Virus record (IMG/VR): IMGVR_UViG_3300045988_162923
Source of the DNA: a virus
Length of the DNA stretch: 64,000 nt
Strand: one strand, 5' to 3'
Position numbers and translations under genes: made by a program. The notes under the pieces are model-generated. The model had not been told where the DNA came from. It made no database searches and saw only the letters and a program-made list of their open reading frames with translations. How positions within the stretch are numbered: the first letter of the stretch is position 1; the number at the start of each line of letters is the position of its first letter. This document shows positions 1-41,617 of the stretch, piece by piece.

Positions 1-129
1 AGCTAATTGATATCTATAAACAAGACTGTCATATATAAAACCCTTTGTATGCTTTTCTATATTTTGTAAATTTTCTGATATAGCATCAAATTTTTGTGCT
101 TTTATCACCATTTTTTTTAATTCTTCCAT
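1..129 (-). CDS. hypothetical protein, N-terminal part only (gene continues past window start)
   Basis: ATG at 129-127 preceded by AAAGGA; frame stays open to the window edge (MEELKKMVIKAQKFDAISENLQNIEKH...). Confidence 0.3.
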   Translation of the reverse strand, partial: MEELKKMVIKAQKFDAISENLQNIEKHTKGFIYDSLVYRYQLA

Positions 130-133
130 ATTT

Positions 134-333
134 CATTCTTTATCCTTTAAAAATTCATTTCCAATTAAAGTCAATTCTTCTTCTAGTGGAGGCGAGTCTA
201 ACATAGATAAAAATTTAGTCCATTCATTTTGATTAAAAATTTTCTAATTGTTATTTTGATTTAGGTTTTCGGTTGTGTCTATCCTCTCCGGGCGGAGTAG
301 ACTCTATGGAATATTAATTTCATCCATTTGTAA
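134..333 (-). CDS. small hypothetical protein with 2 in-frame TAG codons
   Basis: ATG at 333; reading frame stays open only if TAG is sense; TGA stop at 134-136. Weak RBS. Confidence 0.2.
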
Positions 334-511
334 TGAAAGGTTTAAAATTTTTTCATAATGTATCTAGCCAATATTAGGATTACCTTTTCCACCATACACT
401 TTTGAATCATTAGAATCTATTGAAAGATTGATTCTATTATTTATTCCGTTACAATATAAAACTTCATTTCCATCTTTATCATAAAAAGTTGCGCTTTCAA
501 TATTTTGTATT

Positions 512-2251
512 TTAAAAATAATATTCACTCCTACTGACAATTTCATAATCTTCTACTAAAATCTAAGGAGTTATAATTCCGTTCCATTCATTAACAGAAC
601 AACGCCCAATAATATTAATAGATACTTTACCATGCTCAGTATATAATTTTTCAAATTCTTCTTCTGAAGATTTAAATTTAATAATACTAATTTTATTTGG
701 TAAAGTAATTTTTAATGTAGGATTTTTATTTTTTGCCATTAAATTTAAATTTTCAGCAGTCACAGGAACATCTTCCAAAGCAATTAATGCTTCTTCTATT
801 CCTTGTCCCCAAAGATTTTTTAATGTAGCAATATCTGTAATGTCTTCAGGCTTTACATCGACATTATGATAAATAAAATCAACTGTATAAGATGGAATAA
901 ACTAAACATTTTTTAATACTTCATTTGTAATCGTAATAAATAGCTAAATTTCATTATCAGTAATGCCACATCCAAAAGCATTAGGATGACCTTCCGCATA
1001 CATAATCAATCCAGTATCTTGACAGAACTATCTAAAGTCTTTCAAACTAGATTTATCATAACCACGTCCAGACCCTTCCCAAGTAATTGTTCCATCATTA
1101 TGAAATACTTTATTTAAAATTAAAACTGGACGCTAATATTTACTCATTAACTAATTAGCAATTAATCCTGTTAAATTGCGGTCTGCAGAAATATTATCTA
1201 ACTAAATAACTAATAATTTATTTTCTAATAAATTGTTAGCAGTAATTAAATTCTCAATAGTCTCTAAAGTAGCATCTCTAGTTCTAGTCTATCTATTTTT
1301 AATATTAGTACAATTTCTACAAGCCTATTCTACTCTAGGTTCGGCACTACCAGAACAACCACGCTTAGTTGAAGGAATTAATTCATATCCTTTAAAATCT
1401 AACATAGATTCAAATAATACTAATTTTTCTTCCTATGTGCCTACTCGAGTAACAGCATTCACTAAAGGAGCAATATAAAATGCTATATCAATTGGGGTAA
1501 TACTATTAGAAAAATGAAAAGCATCTCTATTAATCATTGTTCTAATAAATGGATTAATAATATGATTTAAACCTTTATCAATAAGTCGTTTAGTTTCATA
1601 ATCTCGTAAGTCCATCATATCAGCAATTAAGCCAAGAGCAACTAAATCTAATAAATCATCAGCATATGTTACATTCATTAATTTATCTAAATAACTACAA
1701 AACTTATAAACCATGCCGACGCCAGATAATGATTTAGTTGGATAGTTACATAACTAATTATTAATTATACAAGCATACTAAGAAACTTTATCTGCTTCGT
1801 GATGATCTATTACTAATACATCAATTCCATGCTCTTTAAGCTATTTATGTTCTTCATAATCATTTGATGAAGAATCTGGAGCAATAACCAATTTAATATC
1901 ATTGCCGATACTATCTAATAATATTCCATGCTATTTGCCTTCATGTACTCGATATGAAATATTATTTTCTACAAAAGCAGGACAGATTTTGTATAAATAA
2001 TTAATTAAAGCAGCCGCGGATGTATAGCCGTCACAATCGCTATCTATCTATATTAAAATTTTATCATTATTATTTATATGTGAAACCAGCATTATGGCCC
2101 CATTTTTTATATTCATAATAGTAGAAGGGTCAAGGATATCATCATCTGTAGTATGTAAATAATGATAGATATTTTTAATACCTCTATTATTAAGAATTTG
2201 TTCAATAGGACTATAACCTGGAATCATTGGGGCTTTTAAATGATATTCCAT
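512..2251 (-). CDS. recJ: RecJ-like DHH/DHHA1 single-strand DNA exonuclease (TAG-recoded, about 12 in-frame TAG)
   Basis: Manual translation through TAG gives IEQILNNRGI, IDSDCDGYTSAAALINYL (motif I), VLVIDHHEADKVS (DHH) and EGHPNAFGCGI (DHHA1 GGH). Joins table ORFs 2048..2326, 1433..1714 and 563..778 in one frame. TAA stop at 512-514. Confidence 0.75.
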
Positions 2252-2252
2252 A

Positions 2253-3044
2253 TTAAATAAATCCCCATTCAGCAAATTTTTCAAATCCACCAATTCTATT
2301 AATATATTCTCTAGCAATTTCAACAATTTCAGTAAAAGGAATCCCGTTTACTGTATCGTCTCCAATAGCACATTTATATTCTACAGGTTCCTCTAATTCT
2401 TGAGCTTTTAAAAAAGCATATATATTTATAGAAATATCTCCTTTAGATAGATCTTTACCATGTAGACCTCCTCCTGTGATGCTATCTCCCATGTCTGATC
2501 CTAATTTTCGGTTAGTGGCTCCAGCATCAACATTAATCCCACCGGACCAATCTCCTAAAGGATTCACTATAGCATCAGGATATTCTAATTGCAACTAAGG
2601 AGAATATACTCGGCTTTGACAAATAATTAATTTATTATCATCCTACTTATCTAAAATATATTTCCCATCAGACTAATATTTATTATAAATATTTCGAGCA
2701 ATTTTAGATAAATCACTTTGTTCTTCAGTAATAGGAGTACCTTTAAAAATTCCATTATCTCCACATCTTAAAGTAATCTGATTATTAGCTAAATTCTTAT
2801 TCTAAGGATGACATCCTAAAAAAACATGTTTTACTTCAGGACATATTCTTTTTACAATTTTTGATATTTCTTGAAATCTAAATATAAAAGAAGACTCTGA
2901 AGTAATATAGCATTCACCATGACCGATTAAAACTTCAACTGCTACTTGAGGATTATCCTAATTTTTATAAGCGAGGTCTACTAAAGCGCCGGCAATTCTA
3001 TCAGCAATTTTATCAGGATGAGCAGGATTTACTTTTTCAAACAT
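2253..3044 (-). CDS. truncated S-adenosylmethionine synthetase (MetK)-like protein, about 264 aa, with in-frame TAG
   Basis: MFEKVNPAHPDKIADRIAGALVD matches the MetK GHPDKIADQISDA motif. GGGLHGKDLSKGD matches MetK GGGAFSGKDPSKVD. ATG at 3044 after AAAGAAAGGA; TAA stop at 2253; 1 nt before the RecJ-like start. Confidence 0.6.
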
Positions 3045-3110
3045 TTAAATCAAAATCCTTTCTTTAAATAGTTGAAGAAATTTTTCTTTTCCTTCATCTA
3101 TTGGACTATT

Positions 3111-4148
3111 TTTATATTGAGTTACCATATTTTTATCAAATATAAAAGATATAGTAACAAAATTTTTATATTTAGTTCTAGTTTTTAATAAATTAATTTT
3201 AAGATGTTTAAATTCATCATCACCAATTATCTAAAACTATCTATCAAAAGCAATAATAATTTCTTCTACGCCACAATCTAATAGTAATTGAATTTGATGT
3301 GAAGAAATATTACTACCACAACAAGCTACTGAAATATTATTATTCCATCCAAAATAAGTGGCATATTTTAAAACTGATTTTTCAGATTCAAAAATAATTG
3401 CTTTTTTCATTTTTTTAATAGCTTGTTTATTCCAATTTAAACCATATAAATTTAGTCCAAGAGGATGATTATATAATTGATTATTAATTTTAATAGGACG
3501 ATATTTACCATATACTTCTGCTTCAGATTTACACATAGTACGTCCGCGCAATCCTATAAAATTACCATTTACATCATAATGAGGAATGGTAATCTAATCT
3601 CCTCCTGGATAATAACCTATATGTGCCTTGGTAAGAACTTCTTGCGAAATTCCTTCATTTAACCAAGGAGTAAGTTTTACTTTATAATTTAATCTTGATA
3701 ATATTGAATCATCATAAGTTTTTAATGTTGTTCTGCTATCTTTTAATTCAATTTCTTGAATTTTAGCATAATTAGAAAGAACTTTCCAATCATCTAAAGT
3801 TTTGCCTTCATTATCATCTTTAATCATACCTGATAACCCAAATCTGCGAGCTATCCATAAAACAGCATCATTTAAATCAAATGTTTCAGCAAATTGAATA
3901 TTCATAATCTTAGAACACAATTCAAATATATCAAAAGTAGAATCGCATCCAGTGTAACACTTAAATAATCCTGTATTATCATAATAATATAATTTACGGC
4001 TACCTTCACCTGGATGATTATGACAAATGGTGGTGGAGACTATTCCAAAATCAGTATATTCAGGATCTCCACCCCATTCAATTAATAAATCAAAAATATT
4101 ATCAAGAGTTAATGCTTGTCTTATTTCTAATTTATCAAATACTATCAT
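3111..4148 (-). CDS. DnaG-like DNA primase (zinc ribbon plus TOPRIM), TAG-recoded
   Basis: CHNHPGEGSRKLYYYDNTGLFKCYTGC zinc ribbon. EEIIIAFDR-TAG-F-TAG-IIGDDEF TOPRIM acidic motifs. Joins ORFs 3594..4148 and 3237..3551 through TAG; TAA stop at 3111. Confidence 0.75.
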
Positions 4149-4330
4149 TAGAATGTAATTACATTAATACAAGTGCCTTTAATGCCAAATTCTTCATTAA
4201 CTACCTTAATAAGGTATTCTTGAGGATGCTTTTTAGCAAACTCTCCTTTAGCAGTCTTTAAATACATATTAGCCATTTCTTTAGGCATCTTATATTCAAT
4301 AGTCCCACCAATAATTTCTTTCTTATTCAT
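4148..4330 (-). CDS. hypothetical protein (60 aa)
   Basis: ORF abutting the primase start (ATGA overlap). Confidence 0.35.
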   Translation of the reverse strand: MNKKEIIGGTIEYKMPKEMANMYLKTAKGEFAKKHPQEYLIKVVNEEFGIKGTCINVITF

Positions 4331-4715
4331 AATTAATCTCCCTATAAAATTAATTTTTCTAATTCATCATTTTCTTTATTTAAATATGAAATTCTAAGTA
4401 ATGGAATACCATGAATTTTACAATAATCATCTTTTAATTTATCACATAACTACTAATATTCAATTTTTTCTTTTGTATTCCATCCGCCTATGTAATTCAT
4501 TGAATGTGTTTCTCCATCATATTCAATCAATTTTTTTACATTATTTTAATCATCTAAAATAGCAAAATCAAATCTTAAATATCCATTTTTAGGGGATAAT
4601 AAATCAAGAAAAACATATTCTAATATTATTTATTTTAAGAATATTCTCAATAAAATATTCACCATGAGATTGTTTCATACAACCACAAGACATAGTATTA
4701 TTCTATTTTAACCAG

Positions 4716-6245
4716 TTAGAACGCACTCTCTTCTTCAATCATAATTCTCATATCATCAATAGGTACTAGTTCATAATTATAAGTAGTACAGAACATAGGA
4801 GTAATTCTACATACACCTAAATCTGCTTTACACCATAAAATTATTCCTTTATATCTACCTCGTCTATTTTTATAAATAGACATTTTAATAGTTGGAGTAT
4901 CAAATAAATTAGCATTTAATATATCTTTTAGAGCAATTAAATCATCATCTTGAACATTTAATAAAATTGAACCATAATCAATTTTATCTGCAATAGATTT
5001 TGCACCACGAAGCAAATTTTGGTCAGGAGTTTTAGAATCTACATAATCACCATTCAGCTATGTAGCAGACATAATAAATACTCCATATTGATTACAAATA
5101 TCTTTTAATCGAGTTGATAACATAAAAAGAATATTATCTTCACGCAATTTAACTCCACCACTTCGTTTAGTAATTTCTTCTAAAATTTTCATACTTGTAT
5201 GAATATAATCGTGAAAAATATACTTTACTCCATAATCTCTAATTGCTTTTTTAATTTCATTTTCTACATCTTGTAATGAAAAATCAGGTAATTCTCGTAA
5301 GTAAATAGGACTATCTTCAATAATTTGGCCAGCTTGAATTATTCTTTCTTCTTCATCGCCTTCATATGAACCATTTATAATATGCTCTTCATTCACGTTA
5401 GAAAGAAAAGCTAACATCATTGTTTGGATTTCACTTAAATCTTGTTCTGTTGCGATATAAAGAACTGGTTCACTAACGCCATTTTTAATCCAACCGAAAT
5501 TTTCATTATATATTTTATTACAAGCAATATTACAAGCATCGGCAATCATAGAACGAGTTTTACCAACACCAGTAGCAGCAGATCGCAAATAAAACTTTCT
5601 TAATCTGGCACCACGAGTAACTGTATTAATTAACGGACCATATAGAGGGCTTCCTACTTCTGGATGCTCTTTAAGAGATTCAATTAAATCAAATATTCCA
5701 GTACCTGCTTGTACAGCGACACCTTCTACATTATTTACATATTCATATTTAATTTCATCTATTCTATCATCTACTAATTGTGCGATATGCTCCAATGTAG
5801 AGTTATCTAAATTTTCTTCTTGTAATTGCTTTTTTTCAACATCTAAGATATTATCAGGGTCATATATAAAAGATACATCAATACCATAGTTATCATAAGC
5901 ACGAAGCAATGACATCTTTTTTAAACGACCATAATAATAATCAAAAGATAAAATTTTAGAATTTTCAGCTACTTTTAATAACCATTCTTCACCTTTGTTA
6001 GCTTTATAAATTCCTTCATATTTAGGACGGTCTGCTAAAAAATCAGAAATATTTTCTAGTGTAATTTTTTCAGCTCCTAATTCATGAATCTTATAAATAG
6101 CTCCAAAAATTATACGATGAAATTGATCAGCAAAATCTTCATCAGTTATAGTATATTTATCAGTTAAATCTAGTAATTGAGGAGTATTAAAAACACAACC
6201 AATTACCTACATAATAGCAGTCGAATCAACATATTTACTACTCAC
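4716..6245 (-). CDS. dnaB: DnaB-like replicative DNA helicase (2 in-frame TAG)
   Basis: N-terminal domain VIGCVFNTPQLLD...EDFADQFHRIIFGAI. Walker A GARLRKFYLRSAATGVGKTR. C-terminus MSAT-TAG-LNGDY...LRGAKSIADKID...KNRRGRYKG aligns with E. coli DnaB SQLNRSLEQR...LRESGSIEQDAD...GKQRNGPIG. Likely GTG start at 6245 after AAGGAGA. Confidence 0.8.
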
Positions 6246-6246
6246 T

Positions 6247-6762
6247 CTAGTTCTCCTTATCATCCAAGAATGTAAATAGTCTTCGTTTCATAGGTATTCG
6301 TTTTGGTAATGGAATTATTACCACTTTTTCTTTTGGTACATAATCTTGTATAACTTTACCTTGATTCGACTGTTGCGCCATCCATAAATTATAATAATAA
6401 TTATAAGCATCTTTATAAATATATGGAATAATTCCTATACCACCATTAGCTTTTGCCTTACTATTACCTTTTACTTCATAAAAATAAACTAAAGCTTTTA
6501 ACATTCCTGAATAAGTGTAATTATAATCTTCTATATATGTATTCATCTATTTGCGCACACGAGCATTAATATAAGTTTCATCAAGTAAATTCATTACATA
6601 TTTTTCAAATTTTTCTTTATCATTTTCTTCTTCTTGCTTTTTTTTATTCTCTGCTTGTGCGCAAGCAGGATGCGCATATCGTCTAGAAGATACTTGAATA
6701 TATGGATATTTATCTCTATCAAATACTTGCTAACAATAGATACATTTTACTTTATGAGCCAT
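6247..6762 (-). CDS. zinc-ribbon protein, hypothetical (2 in-frame TAG)
   Basis: MAHKVKCIYC-Q-QVF...YAHPAC upstream of table ORF 6247..6546 in the same frame. Confidence 0.4.
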
Positions 6763-6827
6763 ATATTCACACCTTTCATAAAATTCTTCTTTTATATATT
6801 ATAACATAAAATAATAAAAAAATCAAC

Positions 6828-6858
6828 CCAAGGCGATTTTTATCTCGCCTTGGGCCTA
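6828..6858 (-). terminator. rho-independent terminator hairpin
   Basis: CCCAAGGCGAGATAAAAATCGCCTTGGG followed by TTGATTTTTTT (T-tract doubles as -35) after the stop of gene 6864..7853. Confidence 0.55.
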
Positions 6859-6863
6859 TCTTA

Positions 6864-7853
6864 TTAAGACTGAGGAACTAATTCTTCCTTAATCTCATTA
6901 ATAATTAAACTAATGAACTCTGCCTGATCCATTGTAGCTTCTGAAATTTTCTTACCCTTACCAAGATACTTTTCAATAACTCTTGTAACACGAGGAGCAT
7001 AATACTCAGAATTCTTTGCCATTAAATCACCAACTAATTGCTGGAATTCAGCCATTAAAGCATCATAATCATAATTCTTAGCAATAGAAGTTGCTTCACG
7101 CTGATCAGTAACAAATTTATTATCATACATCTGAGCTTCCTTGTCAATAGCATCATTCAATGCCTTAACCAAATTTTCATAAGAAAATTCAATAGAAGGA
7201 ACAATATACTTAAAACGGCAACCAGTTTCAGCACTGTTATCAACAGAACGTAGGATTAAACGAACTTTAGCTTCACCATTTTCAGTATATTTTTCAGCAT
7301 AAGCATAAATATCAGCCATATTCTTAGCAATATCATTGTAAGAAGTAGGGCAAGTAGGAACAATTTGATTATACTCTACGCCAGTCTTAGTCTTAAAAGT
7401 CTTATCTTTACTATGAGAAATAAAAACGACAGCATAACCAAGCTGAGCAATAGTTCTAAACATTTCCTCAAACTCTTTCTTTACAAGGGTCCAGCCTTGT
7501 CCATAAGGAATACCAGAAAGAGTATCTACACTATTCTGTGCGCAAATATATTTTTCGCAGAACTGTCCAGCAATATCAACTGTATCAACTGCGATAGACT
7601 TGAATCTCTCTTTTACTTCTGGCTTTTTCAATTCTCGAAGAATTTGCTTCATATCGCCCCAAGAAGTAATATCCTGTGCTAATACGCCAGGCAAAGCATT
7701 ATATCCTCGTTCAAAAGCAAGAATCAATGCTGAAGGCATATGAGAGGCAAAAGTAGTTTTACCAGATTTTTCAGCACCATAGATATAAGTAATATATCCA
7801 GAAAGATCACGACTGACCTTATGAGGAGTAAGGTCTAACAGATTAATAGCCAT
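6864..7853 (-). CDS. P-loop ATPase (Sak4/RecA-like AAA family)
   Basis: Walker A GAEKSGKTTFA; hydrophobic stretch then D (Walker B-like); intact 329-aa ORF. Confidence 0.55.
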   Translation of the reverse strand: MAINLLDLTPHKVSRDLSGYITYIYGAEKSGKTTFASHMPSALILAFERGYNALPGVLAQDITSWGDMKQILRELKKPEVKERFKSIAVDTVDIAGQFCEKYICAQNSVDTLSGIPYGQGWTLVKKEFEEMFRTIAQLGYAVVFISHSKDKTFKTKTGVEYNQIVPTCPTSYNDIAKNMADIYAYAEKYTENGEAKVRLILRSVDNSAETGCRFKYIVPSIEFSYENLVKALNDAIDKEAQMYDNKFVTDQREATSIAKNYDYDALMAEFQQLVGDLMAKNSEYYAPRVTRVIEKYLGKGKKISEATMDQAEFISLIINEIKEELVPQS

Positions 7854-8009
7854 TATTTAATTTTCTCCTTTTTCTCCAATTCAAATAATTTACAATATTC
7901 ATTTAGTAATTTATCTATTTCTTCTTTATTTAACAAAACATCATCATCATATAATATATTTAGTTTAGCACGATGGCCTCTAGGGAGGCCATCATCTATT
8001 GGCTATTTA

Positions 8010-8942
8010 TTAAAAATTAAATCCACCGGGAGCAGGAGCAGCGATGCTTGCATTTTTAGCAGCTTTATATTCATCTTGTCTTTGCTTAATAGTAGCAAGA
8101 TAAGTCTGACGCTGAGTCATGGCATCAGTTAATTCCTGCGCGGTCAAGAATTCTTCTTCATCCCAAGGATATGGATCCTTAGCGCCACCAGTAATTACAA
8201 AGTCCTTACGAGTAGTCTGTACTTCACGAACATTATCTTCACCAAAAGCAGACTCTTCACGAATCTCACGCACAATAGTTTCAGATACCTGACGGCCCCA
8301 AACCTTAGTAAATACTGGTTCTGAGTTAGAAGCACCAAGTCCTTCATAATAAGCCATAGCTCCTGGATTGGTAGCAGAGAATTCAACTGGCAATAAAGCT
8401 TTACGGAAATCAAAAATTGCTCCCTTAACAATTACCTTCTCAGGAAGTTTCTTTTCTTCATCACCATCAATATGAATTACACCAGTAATAACCATATCAC
8501 ACTTAAAAGTATTTCTTACTTTTTCATCTTCTGCTAAAGTATTAGTCAGATGAACAAATCCACCTTCATTGCGCTTAGTGCTAACAAGTTCTGACTTACC
8601 GTTACGATCAGAATAGAATTCATTCAAACCAATAGCAGAATCAACACGAAGTTTAGCAGCCTTATCAGCACCATCTTTCATATAAGTACCTACTAAGCCA
8701 TCAATAATATTCTGAAGAAGAGTATAAGTGGCATTTGCACTTCCCTTAGAAGTTGTAGGAGTTACATAAGTAAAATGAACTTGAACGATATTAGTTAAAG
8801 CATCATCAGTAGCGATGCTAATAGTACCAGAAATAAAAGGAGTGCCAGGAGTCTTAGAATTAGGTCCAGAAACCTTTGATTCCAAATTATGTTCATACAA
8901 AATACCTTCAATATGAGTTACATTTTCCATAGTTTTCTTCAT
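8010..8942 (-). CDS. hypothetical protein (310 aa), possible ssDNA-binding or recombination protein
   Basis: Intact ORF between the ATPase and a wHTH gene; no diagnostic motif recognised. Confidence 0.35.
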   Translation of the reverse strand: MKKTMENVTHIEGILYEHNLESKVSGPNSKTPGTPFISGTISIATDDALTNIVQVHFTYVTPTTSKGSANATYTLLQNIIDGLVGTYMKDGADKAAKLRVDSAIGLNEFYSDRNGKSELVSTKRNEGGFVHLTNTLAEDEKVRNTFKCDMVITGVIHIDGDEEKKLPEKVIVKGAIFDFRKALLPVEFSATNPGAMAYYEGLGASNSEPVFTKVWGRQVSETIVREIREESAFGEDNVREVQTTRKDFVITGGAKDPYPWDEEEFLTAQELTDAMTQRQTYLATIKQRQDEYKAAKNASIAAPAPGGFNF

Positions 8943-8964
8943 AAATTATTTTTCTCCTTAATAA

Positions 8965-9249
8965 TTACACAATTTCAATATTTTTACCTTTTTCTGTTAA
9001 AGTATAAACAATTGGATTTTGACTCACTTTTTCTACAAATCCATCAGATACCAATTTACGCATTGAACCAGAAATTGCTCGACTTGAAATAAACAAACCT
9101 TCAGCAATATCTCTTGACTTAACCATAACTTGATCCTGATTGTCTCTCATCCATTGAAGAATTTGTTTACCACTATCAGTGAATAATGGCTTTTCAACTT
9201 CTTCTTCACTTTTCAATGCATTCCAATAAAGTTCAGCATCTTCATTCAT
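8965..9249 (-). CDS. winged-helix DNA-binding protein
   Basis: RDIAEGLFISSRAISGSMRKLVSDGFVEK HTH-like segment. Confidence 0.4.
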   Translation of the reverse strand: MNEDAELYWNALKSEEEVEKPLFTDSGKQILQWMRDNQDQVMVKSRDIAEGLFISSRAISGSMRKLVSDGFVEKVSQNPIVYTLTEKGKNIEIV

Positions 9250-9397
9250 TTCTGTTGGAATACCATTATTAGCAGCATTATTAATTAAATCTTCAACGAA
9301 TTTTACAAATTCCTATTTTTTACTCATTAATTTTTACTCACTTTCTTTACCTTGTATAAATATTATAACATATTTATTAAGAAAAATCAACTAACGA

Positions 9398-10027
9398 TTA
9401 ATTAATCAAGAATTCTTCAGCATAAGGTAAAGTCTCAATCCATTTACAAAACTCTCGCCACTCAGGTAATCTATGATTTTTTCTTTGTTTATAAATATTT
9501 CTTAAACATCTATAATTAGTAGTCATACGAGCAGTTAGAGTAAATCCAGCAGGATTAGAATAAAGAATCTCTAAATACATTTCTTTTAGTATTCTATTCA
9601 ATTCAGCGACTATTTCAGGATATCCTTTCGCTGCTTCCCGCACTTCAATAAACGCATTATATTCTTTGACTTTTTCTTTCATAATTTCAATAATGCGTTT
9701 ATCAACATATCCGTTATATGCTTGGTCTAAATCAAATTTAGTGATACGATGCATTGTAGATTGAGAACTTACAAATTCTAAGAATCTATAACGCTCTGCT
9801 TCAACCCACATTTTATTACTACAAGTTAAATCAAAATTAACTCTAATGCCAGTTAAAAATTGACTATGAGCAGTATTACCATCTTTAGTAGCTTTAACTA
9901 AATTTAGACCTCTATTTTTATCTTGTTCTGTTACTGGATGCTATTCTGCGACAGTACGCATTGGATATCCAGCAGCAACAAGGCATTCATCTAAATCATA
10001 AATTTTTACATTATTTACAATTGACAT
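9398..10027 (-). CDS. ThyX-like (flavin-dependent thymidylate synthase fold) protein with RHR replaced by RYR
   Basis: HSQFLTGIRVNFDL...KMWVEAERYRFLEFVSSQSTMHR versus ThyX HETPFEHIVFTFHV...RQWFRHRIASYNELSGRYS. C-terminal TTNYRCLRNIYKQR versus TVNARSLMNFLNLR. ATG at 10027; 1 TAG. Confidence 0.35.
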
Positions 10028-10308
10028 TAATCATCATCCTCCGAAAGAGAATAACCAATTACATTACCAAGTCCACGGACTAAAACCTCAATTTCATCAA
10101 TTAAAAATTTTTGATTTGAACTTCTTCCTTGGTAATGATTAACAAAATCAGCATAAGACATAAAATTTAAATCTTTAAATCCATATCTTAATGCTTTATC
10201 CTACATCATAGCAGGGTTGGAACATACAATAGTAGCATTAGTATCTTTAGCAATTAAAAATAATCTACCAGTTTTACCTGTACCACGTTTATCAATAACT
10301 CTATACAT
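10028..10308 (-). CDS. small P-loop protein (93 aa, 1 TAG)
   Basis: IDKRGTGKTGRL P-loop; AAAGGA RBS; TAA stop overlaps the next start (TAATG). Confidence 0.35.
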
Positions 10309-10319
10309 AAAATTATCCT

Positions 10320-11288
10320 TTACTTAATACTATAACCAAATTCTTTTGCTTTAAAATAATCTTGCCAATAATCTTCTCTAGCATCTAACTAATCGCGAGA
10401 ACATTCCTCAATTACTTCAAAGCTGAAATTTTCTACTCCAATAGCCAACATAGCAGGATATAATTTATTGCGGGTCGGTGTTTCCGCACCTATTCCACGT
10501 TTAATATGCTATTTCCATCGGTCAGCTAAATTAACTGCCTAGCCAACATAACACATATTATTATTTAAATTTGTAATTTTATAAATACCAGTATGGACTC
10601 CTAACCCAATTACACGACCAATTAAATCAGTTGTAGGTTTTTCATAATAACATTTCCAAATAACTTTATTAAGAGGCTCTGGATTGCGCAAATGCTTACC
10701 TACTTCATGTAATTCTTTTATTTCATCTAAATCCTCTACTGGAAGAACTAATTTATAAAAATCATTCTTTACTCGAATTTCTTCGGCGCGCTTACTTGCT
10801 TCAACAGAAGCATCGACTTTTTTCTATTGCTCTTGGATTGCTTTATCTAATTTATCTAATTCAATTTTTTTCTCAGCAATTAAATTAGAAATAGATTGCG
10901 CACAATCTGCCATTATATTTTGATAATCACTCTAGTATTGTTCTGCTTGAGCATTATAATAATTGCTAGCATTCTCTAAAGATTTATCTAAATTAGTTCG
11001 TGCTAATTCCATATTTTTTTGATAGAAAATATCAGCCGATTCTTTTGCTTGCTATTCTAAAGCAGAAATACTTGATTGAATTTCATCTCTTTTACCTTGT
11101 AAAGACCCTAATTCAATTTGTAAATCTTTAGTTACTTTTTCTAGCTGCTGTTTTTCAGCGTATAAATTATTATTTAATTTTTCAATGTTTAAATCATATT
11201 CTTTAGTTTTTTTTATTTTAGGCTAAAGAATAAAATAAACAATCGCTCCGCCGATTAGTAATGATATTAAACAAAATAAATAAGGCAT
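10320..11288 (-). CDS. membrane-anchored coiled-coil protein with C-terminal GIY-YIG nuclease domain (7 TAG)
   Basis: N-terminal TM helix (LFCLISLLIGGAIVYFIL), long coiled coil, then GIYKITNLNNNMCYVG-Q-AVNLADRWK-Q-HIKRG, a GIY-YIG motif. Confidence 0.5.
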
Positions 11289-11342
11289 ATTATAATTAAA
11301 AGGGGTAGATTATTAATAAATCTACCCCTTAATATATCTTAA

Positions 11343-11609
11343 TTACTCAGCGTCGGGAGCATCAGGGTCAAAACTCATACCGGCTGGGGTAAGAGAAAGG
11401 AACTTAACCTGCTTGTGAGTTCCATCTTCAATCTCGATTTCAGCAGCGGTACGAACACCAAGGCCCTTGCGCTGAATAGCAGAGGTAAAAATACCATCAA
11501 CAGAGCGCTTTTCAAGACCGAGAGCAGCAGCAACATCAGCAGCAGTAACGTCCTGGCCATTGACTTCCTTCAAATAATTCAAAACTTTCTTAGAATTTTC
11601 CTTCATCAT
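11343..11609 (-). CDS. small hypothetical protein (88 aa), GC-rich, no TAG
   Basis: Intact ORF downstream of a perfect TTGACA-17-TATAAT promoter; terminator hairpin at 11301-11331. Confidence 0.45.
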   Translation of the reverse strand: MMKENSKKVLNYLKEVNGQDVTAADVAAALGLEKRSVDGIFTSAIQRKGLGVRTAAEIEIEDGTHKQVKFLSLTPAGMSFDPDAPDAE

Positions 11610-11679
11610 AATAAATAAATCTCCTTTTAAAATACATAAATAATTTTTTTAATTTTTTTCTTTAAGCCTTTAGCTTATG

Positions 11680-11720
11680 TAAATATTATATCAAAAATTT
11701 TTTTATTTGTCAAGAGTTTT
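11680..11720 (-). promoter_or_regulatory. sigma-A-type promoter TTGACA-17-TATAAT
   Basis: Minus-strand read: TTGACAAATAAAAAAATTTTTGATATAATATTTAC upstream of gene 11343..11609. Confidence 0.55.
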
Positions 11721-11903
11721 GCTAAGAATTTCTTGAACCATTTCATCAATAATGGTAATATCTTCCAAACTATCAACGTGACTTGAGTATTCCATAATCT
11801 AGTTCTATGCTTTATGAATCTAATCTTTATCAGTGCTAGTTTGAACAACTAATTCAGCCTAAGCAATCTTTTTAGCTAAATTCTTGAGTTCTTTAGTTTT
11901 CAT
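11703..11903 (-). CDS. small hypothetical protein (66 aa, 4 TAG)
   Basis: ATG at 11903; frame open through 4 TAG to TAA at 11703. Confidence 0.25.
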
Positions 11904-11961
11904 TTAAAAAATTTCATCCTTAATTTTTACAAATTTATTTTACAATATTTTTTTCTTTTTG

Positions 11962-13167
11962 TCAAAATAATGCGCTCAAAGTACAATCTTCAAGATTCTT
12001 ATCATCTCTGAATCCTTTAAAAAACCCATGACGCAATGTATGCTCTTTACAATCTTTCTGCATACATTGAATAGAAACTACTTTATTAATATATAATTCT
12101 GGATTTGTTGAAAATTTTTCTTTTAATTCATCTGTTAATCCAGATGAAACAGTGCCTATTTCAACTATGTTTCCTTTATCATCCAAGGCGCCTAACTTCA
12201 TAGATGTCTTCCATCCATAATAGTATCCTTTTGTTACTGGCTGATAATACTTTTCATTATCTTCTAAAAAATTACTTCCATTAGTAGGAGGATTCTTCAA
12301 ATAATTTTGATAAAAGCTTCCTTTTACTAATCGTGGCTCTGACCACCCATTAAAGCAATGATCTTCTTCAAAACAATCATAAAATATTGGACTTTTTACT
12401 TCCCAATATTGCCATGTTTCAATTTCTTTTCCATCATAATAATGAGTTGCATCCTCAAATCCAATACAAATACAATCTAAGAAATCCATTTTTTTAATTT
12501 TAATTGAAGACCAAGCCGGTCTTTTATCTGGAGCGTATGGAGCATTTCTCTTTTTTAAGACAGCTCCTTCTTCTCCATTAGATAAAGCTTCCGCAGTAAA
12601 TTCTTGAATATTATTCTCAACTGCTTCTGCTAATTCCATAAAAGGATATTGACTTAGATTATATTTATTCCAAACTGATACCAGCACCTAATAGCGTGTC
12701 CAAGCACCCTCTTTTTGTAAATCAAATCCGTTAAACTTAATAATATCATGTAAATAAAAATGAATTAATCCGCTAGTTTGCTGACGTCTTATCGCTTCTG
12801 GCGCTAAACATCCCATAATTTTAGTTACATCTTTAGAAGTCTTGCCTGGATAATAAATTTCACCAATTAAGATAGTACCGCATGGAAGAATTTTAAGAGC
12901 TTCTTGAATATGAGGAACATTAGCTAATTTTTCAGTTAAAATTCCTGTTGTAGCACTAACATTTCTACTAAATAAATATTCATAATTATCAGTTTTTTCA
13001 AATTCATACCAATAACCATCTTTTTTTAATTCAGCAAAATAATCACCACTATTACAAGCATTTGGAAATAAATTTTCTTTTCCATCCGGTAATTTCCAAA
13101 TTTTCATTGCCTGAATACATTCTGCTTCAGGTGCATATTTGTCTAATAATTCTTTTGAAAAACTCAT
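11962..13167 (-). CDS. ATP-dependent DNA ligase (1 in-frame TAG)
   Basis: KxDG motif I AELKKDGYWYE; motif IV EGAVLKK; motif V KIK. ORFs 12688..13167 and 11962..12687 are in one frame joined by TAG at 12688-12690. Confidence 0.8.
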
Positions 13168-13237: not shown

Positions 13238-13268
13238 AGAATTTATTTCTCCTTCGGTTATCCTTTAA
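13238..13268 (-). terminator. terminator hairpin
   Basis: AACCGAAGGAGAAATAAATTCTCCTTCGGTT after the topoisomerase A gene stop, followed by T-rich run. Confidence 0.5.
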
Positions 13269-15640
13269 ACCTTGGTTACAGATTTAATTGACCCACTTTT
13301 AATCATTTGATTGCCAATAGAAGTACGACCTAATGCTGGAATATCTTTCGCAGAAATACAAATAGATGCACTATTACCGCTAATCAATAAATTATCATTA
13401 TCGTCAATTAAAGAAGCTGAAATTACATTTCCAGTGCTTGCAGTTGGTTTATAAATATATAATCCCTTACCACCACGCTTTTGAATTGTAATTTCAGTTA
13501 ATGGAACTTTTTTACCCATTCCTCCGGTTGTAAAAACAGCTAAACTATCAGTGTCATGGCGAATCGGTAAAGCCATTACAACTTCATCGCCTTCACTCAG
13601 AGTAATACCTTTAATACCATATGTACTTCTGGATGTTGGTGTAATTTCAGATGAATTAAATCTAATAATATAACCATTTTTAGTCAATAACAGAATAGGT
13701 TCATTATCAATTAATGATACTGAAGCCAATCCATCATTTTCTCTAAGAGCGATTGCCGCAATACCAGTTTTCTTTTTAGTTTTAATATATTCATCTAAAG
13801 TAGTCTTTTTTACCAAACCATTTTTAGTTGTAAATAAAACATATTTAGCATTAGTATCTCTATAAATAGAATACATTGTCGCTGGATTTTCATCAACTGC
13901 CATATTTACTAAAGATTTAATAGATTGACCTACTGAGGTGTTTGTACCAATAGGAATATTATCTACCAATAGACGATACATAATCCCTTTATCAGAAAAA
14001 ATCATTAAATTATCAATAGTATTTGTTCTTAATACGCAAGAAGTAATATCATCCTGAGATTTAATACCTTTACCATTTTTCTTTTGAGTGCGGAATGAAG
14101 AAGTAGGAATTCGTTTAATACTACCACCTTCAGTCATTACAACAACACATTTTTCGGGTTCAACAAATTCAATCTCTTTTTCTTCTTTAGTAATTGCTAC
14201 TTGAGTAATTGTACTACGACGTTCATCGCCATAATTTTTCTCAATCTCTGTATAAATATTTTTCATTTCAGGGATTGGATTAGCCAAGATATTATTTAAA
14301 TGGTCTAATTCTTTAACTAAATTATTCTTTTCCTCTTGGATTTCAACTTTTTCCAATTTAGCTAATTTAGCTAATTTCATATCAAGAATTGCCTTTGCTT
14401 GAGCTTCTGATAAATTATATTGATTAATTAAATTAACTTTTGCTGCTGCCGCAGATTCACTCTTTTTAATTAACGCAATAACATTATCAATATCTTCAAG
14501 AGCAATTAATAATCCATCTAAAATATGAATTCTAGCACGAATTTTTTCTGCTTCAAAATTAGTTTTTCTAATTAAAACATCTTTTTGATGTTCATTATAA
14601 ATTTCCAATAATCGTTTAAGATTAAGTATTTCAGGCTTTTTATTAACCAATGCGACTTGATTAATACTATAAGTATCTTCTAAACGAGTATTTTTAAATA
14701 ATTTTGAAATAATAGGTTCAGCAGAAATGCCTTTTGCCAATTCAATTACAAAACGAACACCTTGAATATTACTTTCATCACGAATTGCTGTAATACCTTC
14801 AAGAGTTCCATCTTCACATAATTTATCAATATCTAAAATTAACTGAGTTTTAGATACTTTATAAGGAATACTGGTAAATACAATACTATCTTGTCCTTTA
14901 TTACTTTCAATAGTATATTCTCCACGGATTCGGGCGCGCCCTTTACCAGTAATATAGGTATTTAATAATTCATCTTTATTAATAATCATTCCACCTGTTG
15001 GGAAATCAGGACCTTTAATAAAAGTTAATAAATCTTTAATTTCACAAGTAGGATTATCCAAAAGATATTTAGCAGCATCCATAACTTCATTTAAATTATG
15101 AGGGGCAAAAGAACAAGCCATAGCAACTGCGATACCAGAAGTACCATTAACTAATAGATTAGGAATACGTCCCGGCAAATATATAGGTTCTTCTTCTTCA
15201 TCAGTATATGCTAATTGCCAATCAGAAGTGTTTTTCTTAATATCGGCAAGCATTTCTTCGCCCATTTTAGATAATTTACACTCAGTATAACGATAAGCCG
15301 CGGCTTCATCTCCATCGCGGCCACCATTATTTCCATGGAAAGAGATTAAAGGATAACGCATATTCCATGGCTGACTTAACCATACTAATGCTCCATAAAT
15401 AGAATTATCACCATGAGGATGGAATCGACCCATTGTATCTCCTACTGGCTGAGCACACTTAACGAATTTCTTATTATTAAAATATCCTTTATCGAACATA
15501 TCCCATAAAATTCGTCTTGCTACTGGCTTTAATCCATCTTCAGCAGAAGGAATAGCTCTATCTGTAATAACACTTAGACTATAATCAAGGAATGATTGTT
15601 CTACTTCATGAATAATTGGAGTTTGTAAAATTTCACCCAT
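13265..15640 (-). CDS. type II DNA topoisomerase, A (breakage-reunion) subunit, GyrA/ParC/T4 gp52-like
   Basis: EDGLKPVARRILWDMF; active-site AAYRYTECKLS; 791-aa intact ORF. Confidence 0.85.
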   Translation of the reverse strand: MGEILQTPIIHEVEQSFLDYSLSVITDRAIPSAEDGLKPVARRILWDMFDKGYFNNKKFVKCAQPVGDTMGRFHPHGDNSIYGALVWLSQPWNMRYPLISFHGNNGGRDGDEAAAYRYTECKLSKMGEEMLADIKKNTSDWQLAYTDEEEEPIYLPGRIPNLLVNGTSGIAVAMACSFAPHNLNEVMDAAKYLLDNPTCEIKDLLTFIKGPDFPTGGMIINKDELLNTYITGKGRARIRGEYTIESNKGQDSIVFTSIPYKVSKTQLILDIDKLCEDGTLEGITAIRDESNIQGVRFVIELAKGISAEPIISKLFKNTRLEDTYSINQVALVNKKPEILNLKRLLEIYNEHQKDVLIRKTNFEAEKIRARIHILDGLLIALEDIDNVIALIKKSESAAAAKVNLINQYNLSEAQAKAILDMKLAKLAKLEKVEIQEEKNNLVKELDHLNNILANPIPEMKNIYTEIEKNYGDERRSTITQVAITKEEKEIEFVEPEKCVVVMTEGGSIKRIPTSSFRTQKKNGKGIKSQDDITSCVLRTNTIDNLMIFSDKGIMYRLLVDNIPIGTNTSVGQSIKSLVNMAVDENPATMYSIYRDTNAKYVLFTTKNGLVKKTTLDEYIKTKKKTGIAAIALRENDGLASVSLIDNEPILLLTKNGYIIRFNSSEITPTSRSTYGIKGITLSEGDEVVMALPIRHDTDSLAVFTTGGMGKKVPLTEITIQKRGGKGLYIYKPTASTGNVISASLIDDNDNLLISGNSASICISAKDIPALGRTSIGNQMIKSGSIKSVTKV

Positions 15641-16310: not shown

Positions 16311-18260
16311 TTAAACATCAACATTAGCCCTTTCTGCATTCTTTTCAATAAAATCTTTTCTTGGAGTTACTGCTTCGCCCATTAAACTCATAAAAGTCTT
16401 AGCAACAGCAGTTGCATCTTCCATAGTAATTTGTTTTAAAGTTCTTGTCTCAGGATTCATAACTGTTTCTTCCATCTCAGGAGGATCCATTTCGCCAAGA
16501 CCTTTCATACGACCAAGTTCAAATTTCTTAGTTGTATTTTTGCGGAATTTTTCTAATGCATCATCGTCTTTTAGATATTGGATTTTTGTTCCAATAGTAG
16601 CCTTATAAAGAGGAGGAACTGCCGCATAAATATATCCTTTTTCAATTAACTCTGGACAGAATTTCCAAATAAAAGTTAAGAACAAAATACGAATATGACT
16701 GCCATCAACATCAGCATCGGCGGTAATAATAATTTTACCGTATCGTAATTTAGATTCATCTAAAATAACTTTTCCATCTTTTACTTCAAGTCCAAAAGCA
16801 TCAATCATTCCACTAATTTCTTTATTCTGTAATGCTTTATGTAAGTCAGCTTTTAAAACATTCAAAATCTTACCGCGTAATTGGAATACTGCTTGAGTAG
16901 AACGATTTCGTGCTTCTTTTGTCGAACCCGCAGCAGATTTACCTTCTACAAGGAAAACTTCACATTTATAACGTTCCTTAGAAGAAGCATCTGCTAAAAC
17001 ATCTGGCATAACTACTCGACGTTTATTATCAACTTTGCGTACTGTTTCTTTTGCTTTCTTTGCCTTTTCACGAGCTGCGCGTGCTAATAATGCTTTATCT
17101 ACGATTGCCTTTGCATCTTTTGGATTGCCTTCTAACCAAGTCTTTAAATCTTTAGAAACCAATCTTTGAACAATAGTTCTTGCTTCGCTACTGGATAAAA
17201 CATCTTTAGTTTGTCCAGAAAATACTGGATCAGGCATAATAAAAGAAAGAACTAAAGTTAAACCTTCCTTTAATTCTTCGCCGGTAATATTGCTATCTTT
17301 TTCTTTTAAAAGATTTTTTTCACGAGCATAATCATTAATAGAAGTTGTTAAAGCAGTTCTAAATCCAGTTAAATGAGTGCCACCACTGTTTGGAATAGAA
17401 TTAGTATAAAGTTTATAAGTATCAATATAAGTATCATTATATTGTAAAGCAATTTTAACACCAATCCTATCTTCAATATTTTCAGTGTAAAATACAGAAG
17501 TTAAAGTATTTTTATTATTATTCAAATCTTTAATGTAGTCAAGAATACCATTATTAGATTGAATAGTTTCTTCTTCTTTATCTTTATACTTTAATGTAAA
17601 TTTCAATCCAGGAGATAGATAAGCTAATTCTTGAATTTGTTTCTTTAAAGCAGTATAGTCTAAATCAATTCCTTCTTTAAAGATTTTTGAATCAGGAATA
17701 AAACTTACAATAGTTCCAGTTTTAAAATTATATTTATTAATATCATTAGTTACTTCATATTTAAGTAATTTACCTTCTTTAAAAGAAGCATATGCTACTT
17801 TATTATCTCTGATTGAAGTAACAGTAAAAGACTCTGATAACGCATTTGTAGCTTTCGCACCGACACCATTCATACCACCTGAAGTATTATATCCTGTGCG
17901 ACCATCAGAGTCAAACTTTGCGCCAGTATGTAATTTAGTATAAATATTTACTAAAGTTTCACTACCATCTTTAGCTTTTCCAAAAGGGACACCACGTCCA
18001 TTATCAGAAATAGTAATATTATTATCATTTGTAACTTGAATATTACATTCAGTACAATATCCATTTAAGTATTCATCAACAGCATTAGAAATAATTTCGA
18101 GCGTAATATGTCTAACTCCATCAGGCCCAACTGATCCGATGAACATACCAGGCCTAATACGAATTGCTTCCATACCCTCTAATGTTCGAATATCTTTTAT
18201 GCCGTAATCTTCTTTTCCTTTTTTCAATAAAATTTCTTCACTCAATCTAAATACCTCCAA
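16311..18260 (-). CDS. type II DNA topoisomerase, B (ATPase plus TOPRIM) subunit, GyrB/T4 gp39-like
   Basis: GHKL ATPase N-terminus; TOPRIM VFLVEGKSAAGS (EGDSA motif); 649 aa. Confidence 0.85.
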   Translation of the reverse strand: MEVFRLSEEILLKKGKEDYGIKDIRTLEGMEAIRIRPGMFIGSVGPDGVRHITLEIISNAVDEYLNGYCTECNIQVTNDNNITISDNGRGVPFGKAKDGSETLVNIYTKLHTGAKFDSDGRTGYNTSGGMNGVGAKATNALSESFTVTSIRDNKVAYASFKEGKLLKYEVTNDINKYNFKTGTIVSFIPDSKIFKEGIDLDYTALKKQIQELAYLSPGLKFTLKYKDKEEETIQSNNGILDYIKDLNNNKNTLTSVFYTENIEDRIGVKIALQYNDTYIDTYKLYTNSIPNSGGTHLTGFRTALTTSINDYAREKNLLKEKDSNITGEELKEGLTLVLSFIMPDPVFSGQTKDVLSSSEARTIVQRLVSKDLKTWLEGNPKDAKAIVDKALLARAAREKAKKAKETVRKVDNKRRVVMPDVLADASSKERYKCEVFLVEGKSAAGSTKEARNRSTQAVFQLRGKILNVLKADLHKALQNKEISGMIDAFGLEVKDGKVILDESKLRYGKIIITADADVDGSHIRILFLTFIWKFCPELIEKGYIYAAVPPLYKATIGTKIQYLKDDDALEKFRKNTTKKFELGRMKGLGEMDPPEMEETVMNPETRTLKQITMEDATAVAKTFMSLMGEAVTPRKDFIEKNAERANVDV

Positions 18261-18991
18261 ATATAATTTTTATGAGAATTTCTTTTTCCTCTACATACGG
18301 CAGATATTGTTGAGGAATTTCCTCCGCAAAATTGAGCAGCCAATTGGAGGCTATCAAACTCTTGGATAAGATTATTATTCTTATCATATGCTCCAACTCT
18401 ACGACTGGTTTTTGTGATTCTATTACTTTGGACTTGATTAACTTTCACTTCTGGTTCAATAATTTGATTTTTTTCATCTAAAAATCTAAATATCCTATTT
18501 CCTGTGGTTAATCTAATTCCATTACATACATTACTAATTTTAAATCTATTTAAATTAGTTTTTTCTCCTGCTTCAGCCAATGAATTCCAAATGTTTAAAA
18601 TATTTCTATTTTTATCAATTTCACATACTTTTTTCCCATATTTTTCTCTTTTTGTATTACTCATTTTTTTAGCAATCTAAGGGTCAAACATAGGACTCTC
18701 TGTATTATTAGTCTAATTATATCCTTTTGGGAAAACACAATCTTCTTTAATAATATAATTATGTTCTATTTCAATCATATTTTCCCAACTAATAGTATTA
18801 TCAATAATTTCAAATATAAAATTTTCTACGCCATATTTACGAAAATCTTCCATTAATGGATAATTATAATGGTGGTCTTTTGGATTTTTAGAAGCTCCAA
18901 TATGGTGTCTCCAACGACGCTATACGTCAATTGATGACCCAATATATATTTTATTATTTATTTTATTTGTAATTTTATAAATCTGATACAT
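18242..18991 (-). CDS. GIY-YIG homing endonuclease (N-terminal GIY-YIG, C-terminal tandem HTH/NUMOD-like DNA-binding repeats; 3 TAG)
   Basis: MYQIYKITNKINNKIYIGSSIDV-Q-RRWRHH. Frame continues via TAG into table ORF 18242..18664 (two ...S.VC.G.R...GY.WRY repeats). ATG at 18991. Confidence 0.7.
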
Positions 18992-34784: not shown

Positions 34785-36155
34785 TTACGCTTCATTTTTT
34801 ACTTCTTCAGCCTCTTCCATATCAGGTTCAGTCTCTTCTGCTTTACAGATACCTTCCAGACATTTGAAAGCAAAATTCTTATGTTTGTAAGCAGTAAATG
34901 CCGGACGATTTACAATTCTACACACAACACCTTCACGCACATGAGTTTTGCCGATAGGATCGGGACCGTCATAATATTGCTCAGCAATATTTTTAATCCA
35001 TTCACCAGCGCTAACAGTATCATCATAGGACGCGCCCGGATGGTTAGGAATAATACCAGACCACAGAAGCGGAACACATTTACAACCCATCTGAGCACAA
35101 CGATAACGCATATAATCAGGAGTATATTCTACAATATCGCCATCTTCATTGGTCATAGTCATACGGTAAACGTAAAAATCAGACTGCGGAAGAGTATCAT
35201 GGCTACCATCTTCATAAATCATATAACCAGTAGGAGAACAACCATAAGAGAAGGTAGTCATTTCACCATACTGCTTTACAAATGCTTTATCATTCAATTT
35301 CTTATTAGATACTACACCCATGATAGAAGCACCAGTATCAGTAAAACCAACTACTTCATAATAAACTTCTTCACCCTTATGAAGCTTACCTTCAAAGAAT
35401 TTTGAATGCTGCTCACGGAAAGCATTAGAACCATAGTAACCACCATCAAAATTCTCTAGTACAGTACGACGAGTACCTGAGACATAACCCCAATTATAGA
35501 TTGGAGTACCCGGACGCCGCAACAGCCAATCAAAGAAAGAACGCTTATATTTTACGAAAGTAGGAACTCGACCGGTGCGCTGAGAAGTACCATGCATTTT
35601 AAGAGTAATTTCTACATAATCGCCCGGATGGAAAGCACCAAGATTATAAGCCAATTGCTCAGTATCTGCGTGTTCAACAAATAGAGGAGCAATAGGAACT
35701 TTTCTCTTGCGAGTACGATTTCCTTTTACTTTATTTTCATAAGGCTGCTTATGAGAACGAGGAATATACTTTTGACAAATTTCATGTCCATTTAGCATAG
35801 TAAAAGAGTCGCCTTCTTTTACTTCTGCCTTAGTATAAGAGATACAATTCAAATGAAGGAACAAGCCATCACTCTTTTCGCCACGCAGACGAATAGAAGT
35901 TACATTGCGTTTATTGGGGTCCATATAGCCGCCGATAGAATTACCAGCATCATCTTTCTTACGCAGAAGATTATTATACTCAGCAAATTCTACAGACAAC
36001 TGACCATCGGTAGGAAAATAAATACCAACTTCACCTGCTGCGTAGCTCATATCTACACAAACAGTATTGCCAAAACATTCACCCAACTGTAGCCGGTCAG
36101 CATTTGGATGTTTTCTCAGATTATCAATTTTACATACATAAGCATAATAAGACAT
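34785..36155 (-). CDS. ATP-dependent RNA ligase (KxHGxN motif-I type)
   Basis: Motif I LKMHGTS (compare T4 Rnl2 KEHGTN); 456 aa; GC-rich; no TAG. Confidence 0.6.
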   Translation of the reverse strand: MSYYAYVCKIDNLRKHPNADRLQLGECFGNTVCVDMSYAAGEVGIYFPTDGQLSVEFAEYNNLLRKKDDAGNSIGGYMDPNKRNVTSIRLRGEKSDGLFLHLNCISYTKAEVKEGDSFTMLNGHEICQKYIPRSHKQPYENKVKGNRTRKRKVPIAPLFVEHADTEQLAYNLGAFHPGDYVEITLKMHGTSQRTGRVPTFVKYKRSFFDWLLRRPGTPIYNWGYVSGTRRTVLENFDGGYYGSNAFREQHSKFFEGKLHKGEEVYYEVVGFTDTGASIMGVVSNKKLNDKAFVKQYGEMTTFSYGCSPTGYMIYEDGSHDTLPQSDFYVYRMTMTNEDGDIVEYTPDYMRYRCAQMGCKCVPLLWSGIIPNHPGASYDDTVSAGEWIKNIAEQYYDGPDPIGKTHVREGVVCRIVNRPAFTAYKHKNFAFKCLEGICKAEETEPDMEEAEEVKNEA

Positions 36156-36174
36156 AATCTTTCATTCCTTTCTT

Positions 36175-37074: not shown

Positions 37075-37109
37075 TCAATACCAACCCCTATTTTTTTTAT
37101 TTATTTCTT

Positions 37110-37192
37110 ATCTCATTTTGTAAATATATTATATCATATTTTATTAAAAAAATCAAAAAAGAGGAATGAAATTAATCATTCCTCTTTTCTTT
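37110..37192 (-). promoter_or_regulatory. terminator hairpin plus conserved promoter cassette
   Basis: AAGAGGAATGA...TCATTCCTCTT hairpin then TTGATTTTTTTAATAAAATATGATATAATATATTTAC. Confidence 0.55.
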
Positions 37193-37928: not shown

Positions 37929-38148
37929 GCCAATGCTTAATCACAATAATCATCTCCTTTTATAAGATACTTGTTTCCAAGTAAATCATCAATTGTTATT
38001 AAAATTCTCCATTTCTTTCTTAACAGTATCCAATCCTTCAAAGATACTATTTAAAATAATTACTTGAGCGCCAACGCTTTTAAAATTTTCAATTAGCCAA
38101 TTTGCTAAATCAGGAAGCTTTGCTTCAATTGTATCAATATCTTCTTTA

Positions 38149-39740: not shown

Positions 39741-39752
39741 ATTTTTCCTCCT

Positions 39753-40810: not shown

Positions 40811-40812
40811 AA

Positions 40813-41505: not shown

Positions 41506-41520
41506 GAATTTTTACCATCC

Positions 41521-41602: not shown

Positions 41603-41617
41603 TTATATTAAATTATT

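Follow-up and report, generated by a model that had tools for sequence, protein, structure and literature searches.

A compact, TAG-recoded MetK-like gene in the replication module of a phage and its probable role in SAM supply

Is a MetK-like gene that appears both too short and interrupted by stop codons a broken copy of the host's S-adenosylmethionine (SAM) synthetase, an agent directed against the host enzyme, or a working synthetase of unusually small size? The question is raised by the gene at 2253-3044 in a stretch of viral DNA of 64,000 nucleotides (IMG/VR record IMGVR_UViG_3300045988_162923), which we analysed as a whole and call the window. The initial annotation, made from the sequence alone, described a truncated MetK that could make SAM or could instead poison host MetK. 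We examine these suggestions, beginning with the gene itself, because the answer depends on how its codons are read.

The gene, its neighbours and its TAG codons

If only TAA and TGA are taken as stops, the MetK-like frame runs on the minus strand from an ATG at 3044 to a TAA at 2253-2255 and lies between two genes of the same orientation:

3045-4148, minus strand: upstream gene for a primase-like protein of 367 residues, with a weak Toprim match
2253-3044, minus strand: compact coding sequence resembling MetK, a methionine adenosyltransferase (MAT); 263 residues and a TAA stop, with five in-frame TAG sense codons
512-2251, minus strand: downstream gene for a RecJ-like DHH exonuclease of 579 residues, with 15 TAG codons

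The three are tightly packed, with spacers of 0-1 base. The TAA of the primase-like gene touches the MetK-like ATG (0 bases between), and the RecJ-like ATG (2249-2251) follows the MetK-like TAA after one base. The initial annotation was right about the adjoining RecJ-like gene, whose product matches Pfam DHH (2.6e-17) and RecJ_OB (3.3e-8). The order of the replication module in the window is AAA_24, YorH-like, DnaB, primase, MetK, RecJ. Two GIY-YIG homing-endonuclease-like genes (10320-11288 and 18242-18991, one with NUMOD) are also found in the replication region, and one of them adjoins a GyrB-like gene (16311-18173) which, together with 13265-15640, looks by eye like a topoisomerase.

Under the standard code the sole open reading frame at this locus is a 113-residue C-terminal piece (2253-2594). 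The window, however, clearly uses TAG as a sense codon: long open reading frames, nearly all on the minus strand, cover 96% of it with TAA and TGA as stops versus 67% under the standard code. Since TAG is decoded as sense, the MetK-like gene is full-length. Its five TAG codons are the following:

2958-2960, minus strand: codon 29; homologues most often have Q or E
2802-2804, minus strand: codon 81; falls on a Gln shared by 52 of 52 homologues
2673-2675, minus strand: codon 124; in-frame
2643-2645, minus strand: codon 134; in-frame, GAA in a close relative
2595-2597, minus strand: codon 150; in-frame

The meaning of TAG is probably glutamine, to judge by these alignments. Codon 81 corresponds to Gln99 of E. 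coli MetK (Gln98 in mature numbering), the residue with which the gating loop and the methionine site begin. Two contigs from gut metagenomes (L010 and L011, 92% DNA identity) keep TAG at codons 29, 81, 124 and 150. A decaying remnant, that is, a degraded and non-functional MetK broken by stops, is what the standard code would suggest with its five TAG stops and single 113-residue frame, but such a pseudogene is scarcely credible, and we regard it as refuted by the window-wide use of TAG as sense, by the fall of TAG 81 on an invariant Gln, by the retention of four of the five TAGs in 92%-identical relatives and by strong family conservation at the same length, with about 100 invariant positions. 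Judged by its sequence, the gene is genuine, intact and recoded from TAG to Gln.

In-frame TAG codons are distributed very unevenly along the window: the genes at 133-22657 contain about 58 and those at 49545-63572 about 52, against about 5 in 22866-48177. GC content is higher in the TAG-poor block (up to 0.41), which would fit its later acquisition from standard-code genomes. No suppressor tRNA(CUA) is present in the window, where ARAGORN and Rfam detect only four tRNAs (Cys, Ala, Lys, Gly; 49445-52268); hence the TAG decoder would be encoded outside the window or otherwise supplied.

Fold, active-site residues and the distribution of the shortening

Sequence searches used the protein translated with TAG as Gln. 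Pfam S-AdoMet_synt_N (PF00438) matches residues 3-71 with E=1.6e-10 and 41.9 bits (gathering cut-off 33.1). It is the only Pfam match at E<=1, so that the central (PF02772) and C-terminal (PF02773) MAT domains escape detection in that search. Every match found by phmmer in the PDB is a SAM synthetase, through the N-terminus and the GGG..GKD loop, the latter region being aligned weakly by both phmmer and hmmsearch. The NCBIfam equivalog model for metK (TIGR01034) gives 46.5 bits, below its cut-off of 309.4; E. coli MetK scores 667. The phrog_1569 profile, on the other hand, spans the protein from end to end (residues 1-262, E=6.3e-62).

To what fold do these residues belong? An AlphaFold model was built for P0001, a relative 94% identical to the window protein, with 52 aligned homologues (pLDDT 84, pTM 0.84). 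The best 50 Foldseek matches of this model in the PDB are all MATs, and the predicted three-lobed MAT fold spans 250 of 263 residues. An hhalign comparison of the family profile with E. coli MetK gave a probability of 96% over 223 columns. In the BFVD library of viral structures there was no significant match (best E 0.012). The model is weak at residues 174-183 (pLDDT <50), the pLDDT being about 47-57 over 171-200, a stretch that includes triphosphate-binding residues; this is compatible with, though no sign of, a loop that would be ordered by the partner subunit and substrates.

According to this model the protein keeps all three MAT lobes. The suggestion that one domain has been lost thus has to be abandoned: comparison with MAT folds finds none missing, and the deletions are scattered over the alignment and across the three lobes. 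The deficit of about 120 residues relative to bacterial MetK, in contrast, is real, the lengths being 263 and 384 residues (121 fewer) when the E. coli protein from NC_000913.3 is used as reference. It is composed of about 13 deletions of 1-22 residues (in E. coli numbering, for example, 81-90, 108-112, 145-159, 175-180 and 200-221) and about 42 C-terminal residues, the boundaries of the C-terminal deletion varying with the alignment. The gating-loop region is 5 residues shorter than in E. coli MetK and the GGG..GKD loop (P-loop) 1 residue shorter. The missing segments could alter activity, regulation or oligomerisation.

Two segments noticed at the outset can be placed exactly:

3009-3020, minus strand: H9-P10-D11-K12 motif, equivalent to E. 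coli H15/D17/K18 and invariant in 52 homologues
2436-2474, minus strand: GGGLHGKDLSKGD loop, residues 191-203, equivalent to E. coli G259-D272 and including K266, K270 and D272

The first belongs to the HPDKIAD motif, which does occur as described (residues 9-15) and whose E. coli counterparts H15, D17 and K18 belong to the triphosphate and Mg2+ site. The glycine loop is also there, although its spacing is not the GGGxxxGKD that had been given for it; the actual GGGLHGKDLSKGD reads GGGxxGKDxSKxD, one residue shorter than the canonical form.

Alignment mapping shows identity to E. coli MetK at H15, D17, K18, E43, E56, Q99, D119, D164, K166, D239, R245, K246, D250, G259-261, K266, D267, K270 and D272, while F231 is replaced by W166 of the window protein. 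The catalytic roles of these residues are those established by structural work on MetK. The mapped catalytic and ligand positions are invariant in 52 family members that are about 66% identical overall. Kinship with MetK could have failed on an unrelated fold or on absent ATP- and methionine-binding residues; what was found is a MAT fold in which all the ligand residues checked are kept. The protein thus shares with bacterial MetK (EC 2.5.1.6; TIGR01034; the enzymes of E. coli, of C. jejuni, 4le5, and of T. thermophilus, 5h9u) its fold, its N-terminal Pfam domain and all the catalytic, metal, phosphate and methionine-site residues checked, and differs from it in being 121 residues shorter, about 20-27% identical and far under the TIGR01034 cut-off.

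The compact family and its genomic settings

The word truncated does not suit this protein, which is one of a conserved family of about 260 residues with all three lobes present. A search of 90% clusters returned at least 8000 matches and, among those listed, lengths are 260-272 residues, mostly 260-264, and identities 63-68% apart from P0001. At E<1e-30 there are 287 representatives (50% clustering), and relatives occur on at least 593 IMG/VR contigs. Homologues of the phrog_1569 family are full-length and about 58-68% identical to the window protein (94% for P0001). Matches among GenBank phages come from Streptococcus Javan prophages, Gardnerella phage vB_Gva_AB1, whose homologue (ORF19) is annotated as S-adenosylmethionine synthetase, and Ca. 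Heliusvirales gut phages. When positions 1-12000 of the window were compared with GenBank phages by megablast there was no match, meaning that this phage has no close sequenced relative among them. Six family members (P0186, P0193, P0195, P0201, P0205 and P0223) have 346-415 residues. We considered them as a bridge to full-length MetK and dropped the idea, as their big lineage-specific insertions lie at non-canonical sites, after the first lobe or within the second, and do not correspond to canonical MetK segments.

Phage MetK has been met before. K00789 is found in 58.9% of Ca. Heliusvirales genomes and has been suggested to work together with methylases in countering restriction (10.1101/2023.08.29.555303; PMC11283538). 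The MetK of the S. agalactiae prophage 12/111phiA has been described as 135 residues shorter than E. coli MetK; its deletion and complementation give phenotypes and its expression from a plasmid alters the phenotypes of the cells, in a study without an enzyme assay (PMC8223999). Going by sequence, it probably belongs to the same short family, since S. agalactiae has a member of 260 residues (P0059, 64-65% identical) and Javan prophage relatives are shared. The MetK of Phi1207.3 has been proposed to supply the methyl donor for a neighbouring methylase (PMC4260502). This protein (orf29, 353 residues) is likewise a phage-borne MAT encoded beside DNA methylases; it matches all three Pfam MAT domains, of which only the first is recognised in the window protein, itself shorter by 90 residues. 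In the literature on phage MetK, SAM synthetase, MAT and K00789 we found annotations and one phenotype study, and no biochemistry or structure of the form of about 260 residues.

The window gene therefore joins a known and widely annotated family of phage auxiliary genes and is not a new type of system. What we add here is that no lobe is missing, that the checked catalytic residues are intact, that the linkage to methyltransferases is quantified, that a second context exists in the replication module of large phages, and that in this gene the glutamine of the methionine site is written as a recoded TAG.

The linkage was measured in a census of neighbours at 78 IMG/VR viral loci. A DNA methyltransferase lies directly downstream of the short metK in 61 of the 78, all but one of these 61 enzymes matching N6_N4_Mtase; ParB_N is also matched by the downstream protein at 52 of the 78 loci. 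At GenBank phage loci the short metK has a small-terminase-like or HNH gene on one side and one or two genes for DNA methyltransferases on the other. Most members of the short phage family (phrog_1569) are found directly upstream of a ParB_N/N6_N4 DNA methyltransferase, close to packaging genes, in temperate phages of 40-70 kb. The window gene differs from this typical context in having primase and RecJ as neighbours, no adjacent methyltransferase and five recoded TAGs; the nearest methyltransferase gene in the window is about 43 kb away. The same primase-MetK-RecJ position is conserved in L005, a metagenomic contig of 188 kb read with the standard code, where six consecutive genes are 50-73% identical to those of the window (65% for the primase-like orthologue). 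As the order of the replication module recurs there, the position of metK is inherited and not the result of a recent insertion.

Other settings also occur. On contig L014 (4700-9200) the short metK is found between genes for a Tad3-domain protein, an N6_N4 methylase and a Sequestin-domain protein, an arrangement that resembles an anti-defence islet. On contig L017 (2000-5800) it comes after genes for two ParB_N proteins, a radical-SAM enzyme and a PLP-dependent (PALP) enzyme, and this cluster is possibly a SAM-derived modification pathway.

What the protein may do

If the protein makes SAM, what in this phage would use it? Three genes of the window are candidates:

46072-47250, minus strand: Eco57I-type N6-adenine DNA methyltransferase with an NPPY motif (PF07669 E=1.2e-21, PF02384 3.2e-5)
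49545-50402, minus strand: second protein resembling a methyltransferase, with motifs EPSAGDGSF and NPPF and 7 TAG codons (phrog_799, DNA methyltransferase, E=1.6e-11)
55804-57132, minus strand: radical SAM/SPASM enzyme with 10 TAG codons (phrog_1802 E=1.9e-58; weak Pfam matches to Radical_SAM, Fer4_12 and SPASM)

The second of them has no Pfam match, and a sequence search of the PDB with it was uninformative. Judging by their motifs and profile matches, both methylase-like proteins and the radical SAM/SPASM enzyme are probable SAM consumers.

Several other genes of the window deserve mention. An unannotatable open reading frame of 272 residues without TAG (50406-51224) follows the methyltransferase-like gene at 49545-50402, and the two (49545-51224) could represent something like a restriction-modification pair, or else an orphan methylase and its cargo. 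About 0.9 kb from the radical SAM/SPASM gene is the gene for a 203-residue protein (58020-58631) with a long Cys-rich repeat of the CSGSC/CTGC type; the enzyme and this protein could be a maturase and its substrate. There is a cluster for NAD+ supply, consisting of an NAD synthase (28820-29620), a NAMPT-like phosphoribosyltransferase (30079-31593) and a PRPP-synthetase-like protein (31692-32528), which resembles phage pathways for NAD+ reconstitution, known to act against defences that deplete NAD+. Taken with the SAM synthetase, this cluster hints at a theme of cofactor autonomy. A set of RNA-repair or vault-like character (34785-45939) encodes an RNA ligase (34785-36155), an RNase T-like exonuclease (36175-37074), an RlaP nucleotidyltransferase (38149-38967), a major-vault-protein-like protein (41618-44104; MVP shoulder and Vault_3 domains) and a DUF2828/DUF7788 protein (44407-45939). 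The window further encodes an SPFH/flotillin protein (23495-24883).

We consider it likely, with a probability of roughly 70%, that the gene encodes an active compact SAM synthetase of a phage type, which would feed the phage's own SAM-dependent enzymes. The remark that the protein could make SAM thus gains support from the predicted MAT fold, the invariant catalytic residues, the coupling to methyltransferases and the probable SAM users in the window. The enzyme would be a MAT from which loops, helices and the C-terminal tail have been trimmed, the three lobes and the full catalytic set being kept. Like canonical MAT it would form dimers or larger assemblies whose active sites lie where subunits meet, and would convert ATP and L-methionine into SAM. 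Since the primase, MetK and RecJ genes are packed so closely, we propose that they are co-expressed, and SAM supply might then be raised or secured during phage DNA synthesis. In most relatives the beneficiary would be the adjacent ParB_N/N6_N4 methyltransferase, shielding phage DNA from host restriction; here it would be the Eco57I-type methylase, the second methylase-like protein and the radical-SAM enzyme. Synthesis to full length would depend on the decoding of TAG as Gln, at the methionine-site codon 81 among others.

Another potential role is that of an enzyme with altered chemistry, in which the MAT fold and phosphate site serve a changed substrate or product specificity. Such an enzyme could use another nucleotide or a methionine analogue, or could serve a DNA/RNA hypermodification pathway instead of the general SAM pool. 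The loop that gates methionine is, after all, 5 residues shorter and the P-loop 1 residue shorter, the metK of L017 sits with radical-SAM and PALP enzymes and no methylase, and the window has a radical SAM/SPASM enzyme of its own. Nevertheless, E50, Q81, D96, W166 (in place of Phe) and D173 are canonical MAT residues of the methionine and adenine sites and are invariant, and the dominant neighbour in the family, an N6/N4 DNA methyltransferase of the ordinary kind, requires plain SAM. We therefore think altered chemistry unlikely.

A more speculative suggestion concerns the host enzyme. Besides acting as an enzyme in its own right, the phage subunit might form mixed dimers that share an interface with host MetK and so reprogramme host SAM synthesis early in infection, by deregulating or hijacking it, in a manner gated by TAG-to-Gln recoding; recoding would act as a gate because the methionine-site Gln81 of the phage subunit is itself a TAG codon. 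We regard this as very improbable.

Also very improbable, in our opinion, is the proposal of the initial annotation that the protein poisons host MetK, forming mixed oligomers that lower or rewire host SAM synthesis and so blunt SAM-dependent restriction or BREX, with an outcome resembling that of T3 SAM lyase. MAT active sites lie at the dimer interface and the core sheets are kept in the model, which makes heterodimers conceivable, and T3 SAMase is known to inactivate MetK via heteropolymers (PMC8406200). However, no positive evidence for such a modulator was found, and all catalytic residues on either side of the composite site are invariant, a conservation that would be needless in an inhibitor. 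Coupling to SAM consumers, both at the 61 of 78 loci and in this window, is the opposite of what SAM depletion would lead one to expect. Neither is there any similarity to SAM lyase: the significant sequence and fold matches of the protein are to MATs alone, all the top fold matches among them, and 8bb1 was matched through its MetK chain only. What is shared with T3 SAM lyase is the common theme of a phage protein that acts on the SAM economy of the infected cell. The lyase has an unrelated fold, degrades SAM and inactivates MetK. An opposite effect is expected of the window protein, which combines the fold and catalytic residues of a synthetase with linkage to enzymes that consume SAM.

We know of no SAM synthetase smaller than this family of about 260 residues, about 30% shorter than MetK, provided that it is active; it would be a useful minimal scaffold for enzymology and for biocatalysis with SAM analogues. 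The gene is also an internal proof of the probable TAG-to-Gln recoding, an invariant catalytic Gln being written as TAG. As to the phage, the window carries cofactor-supply genes for both SAM and NAD+. For the family at large, confirmed activity would make a firmer case for the common supposition that many phages of Firmicutes and of the gut carry their own SAM supply for self-methylation against restriction.
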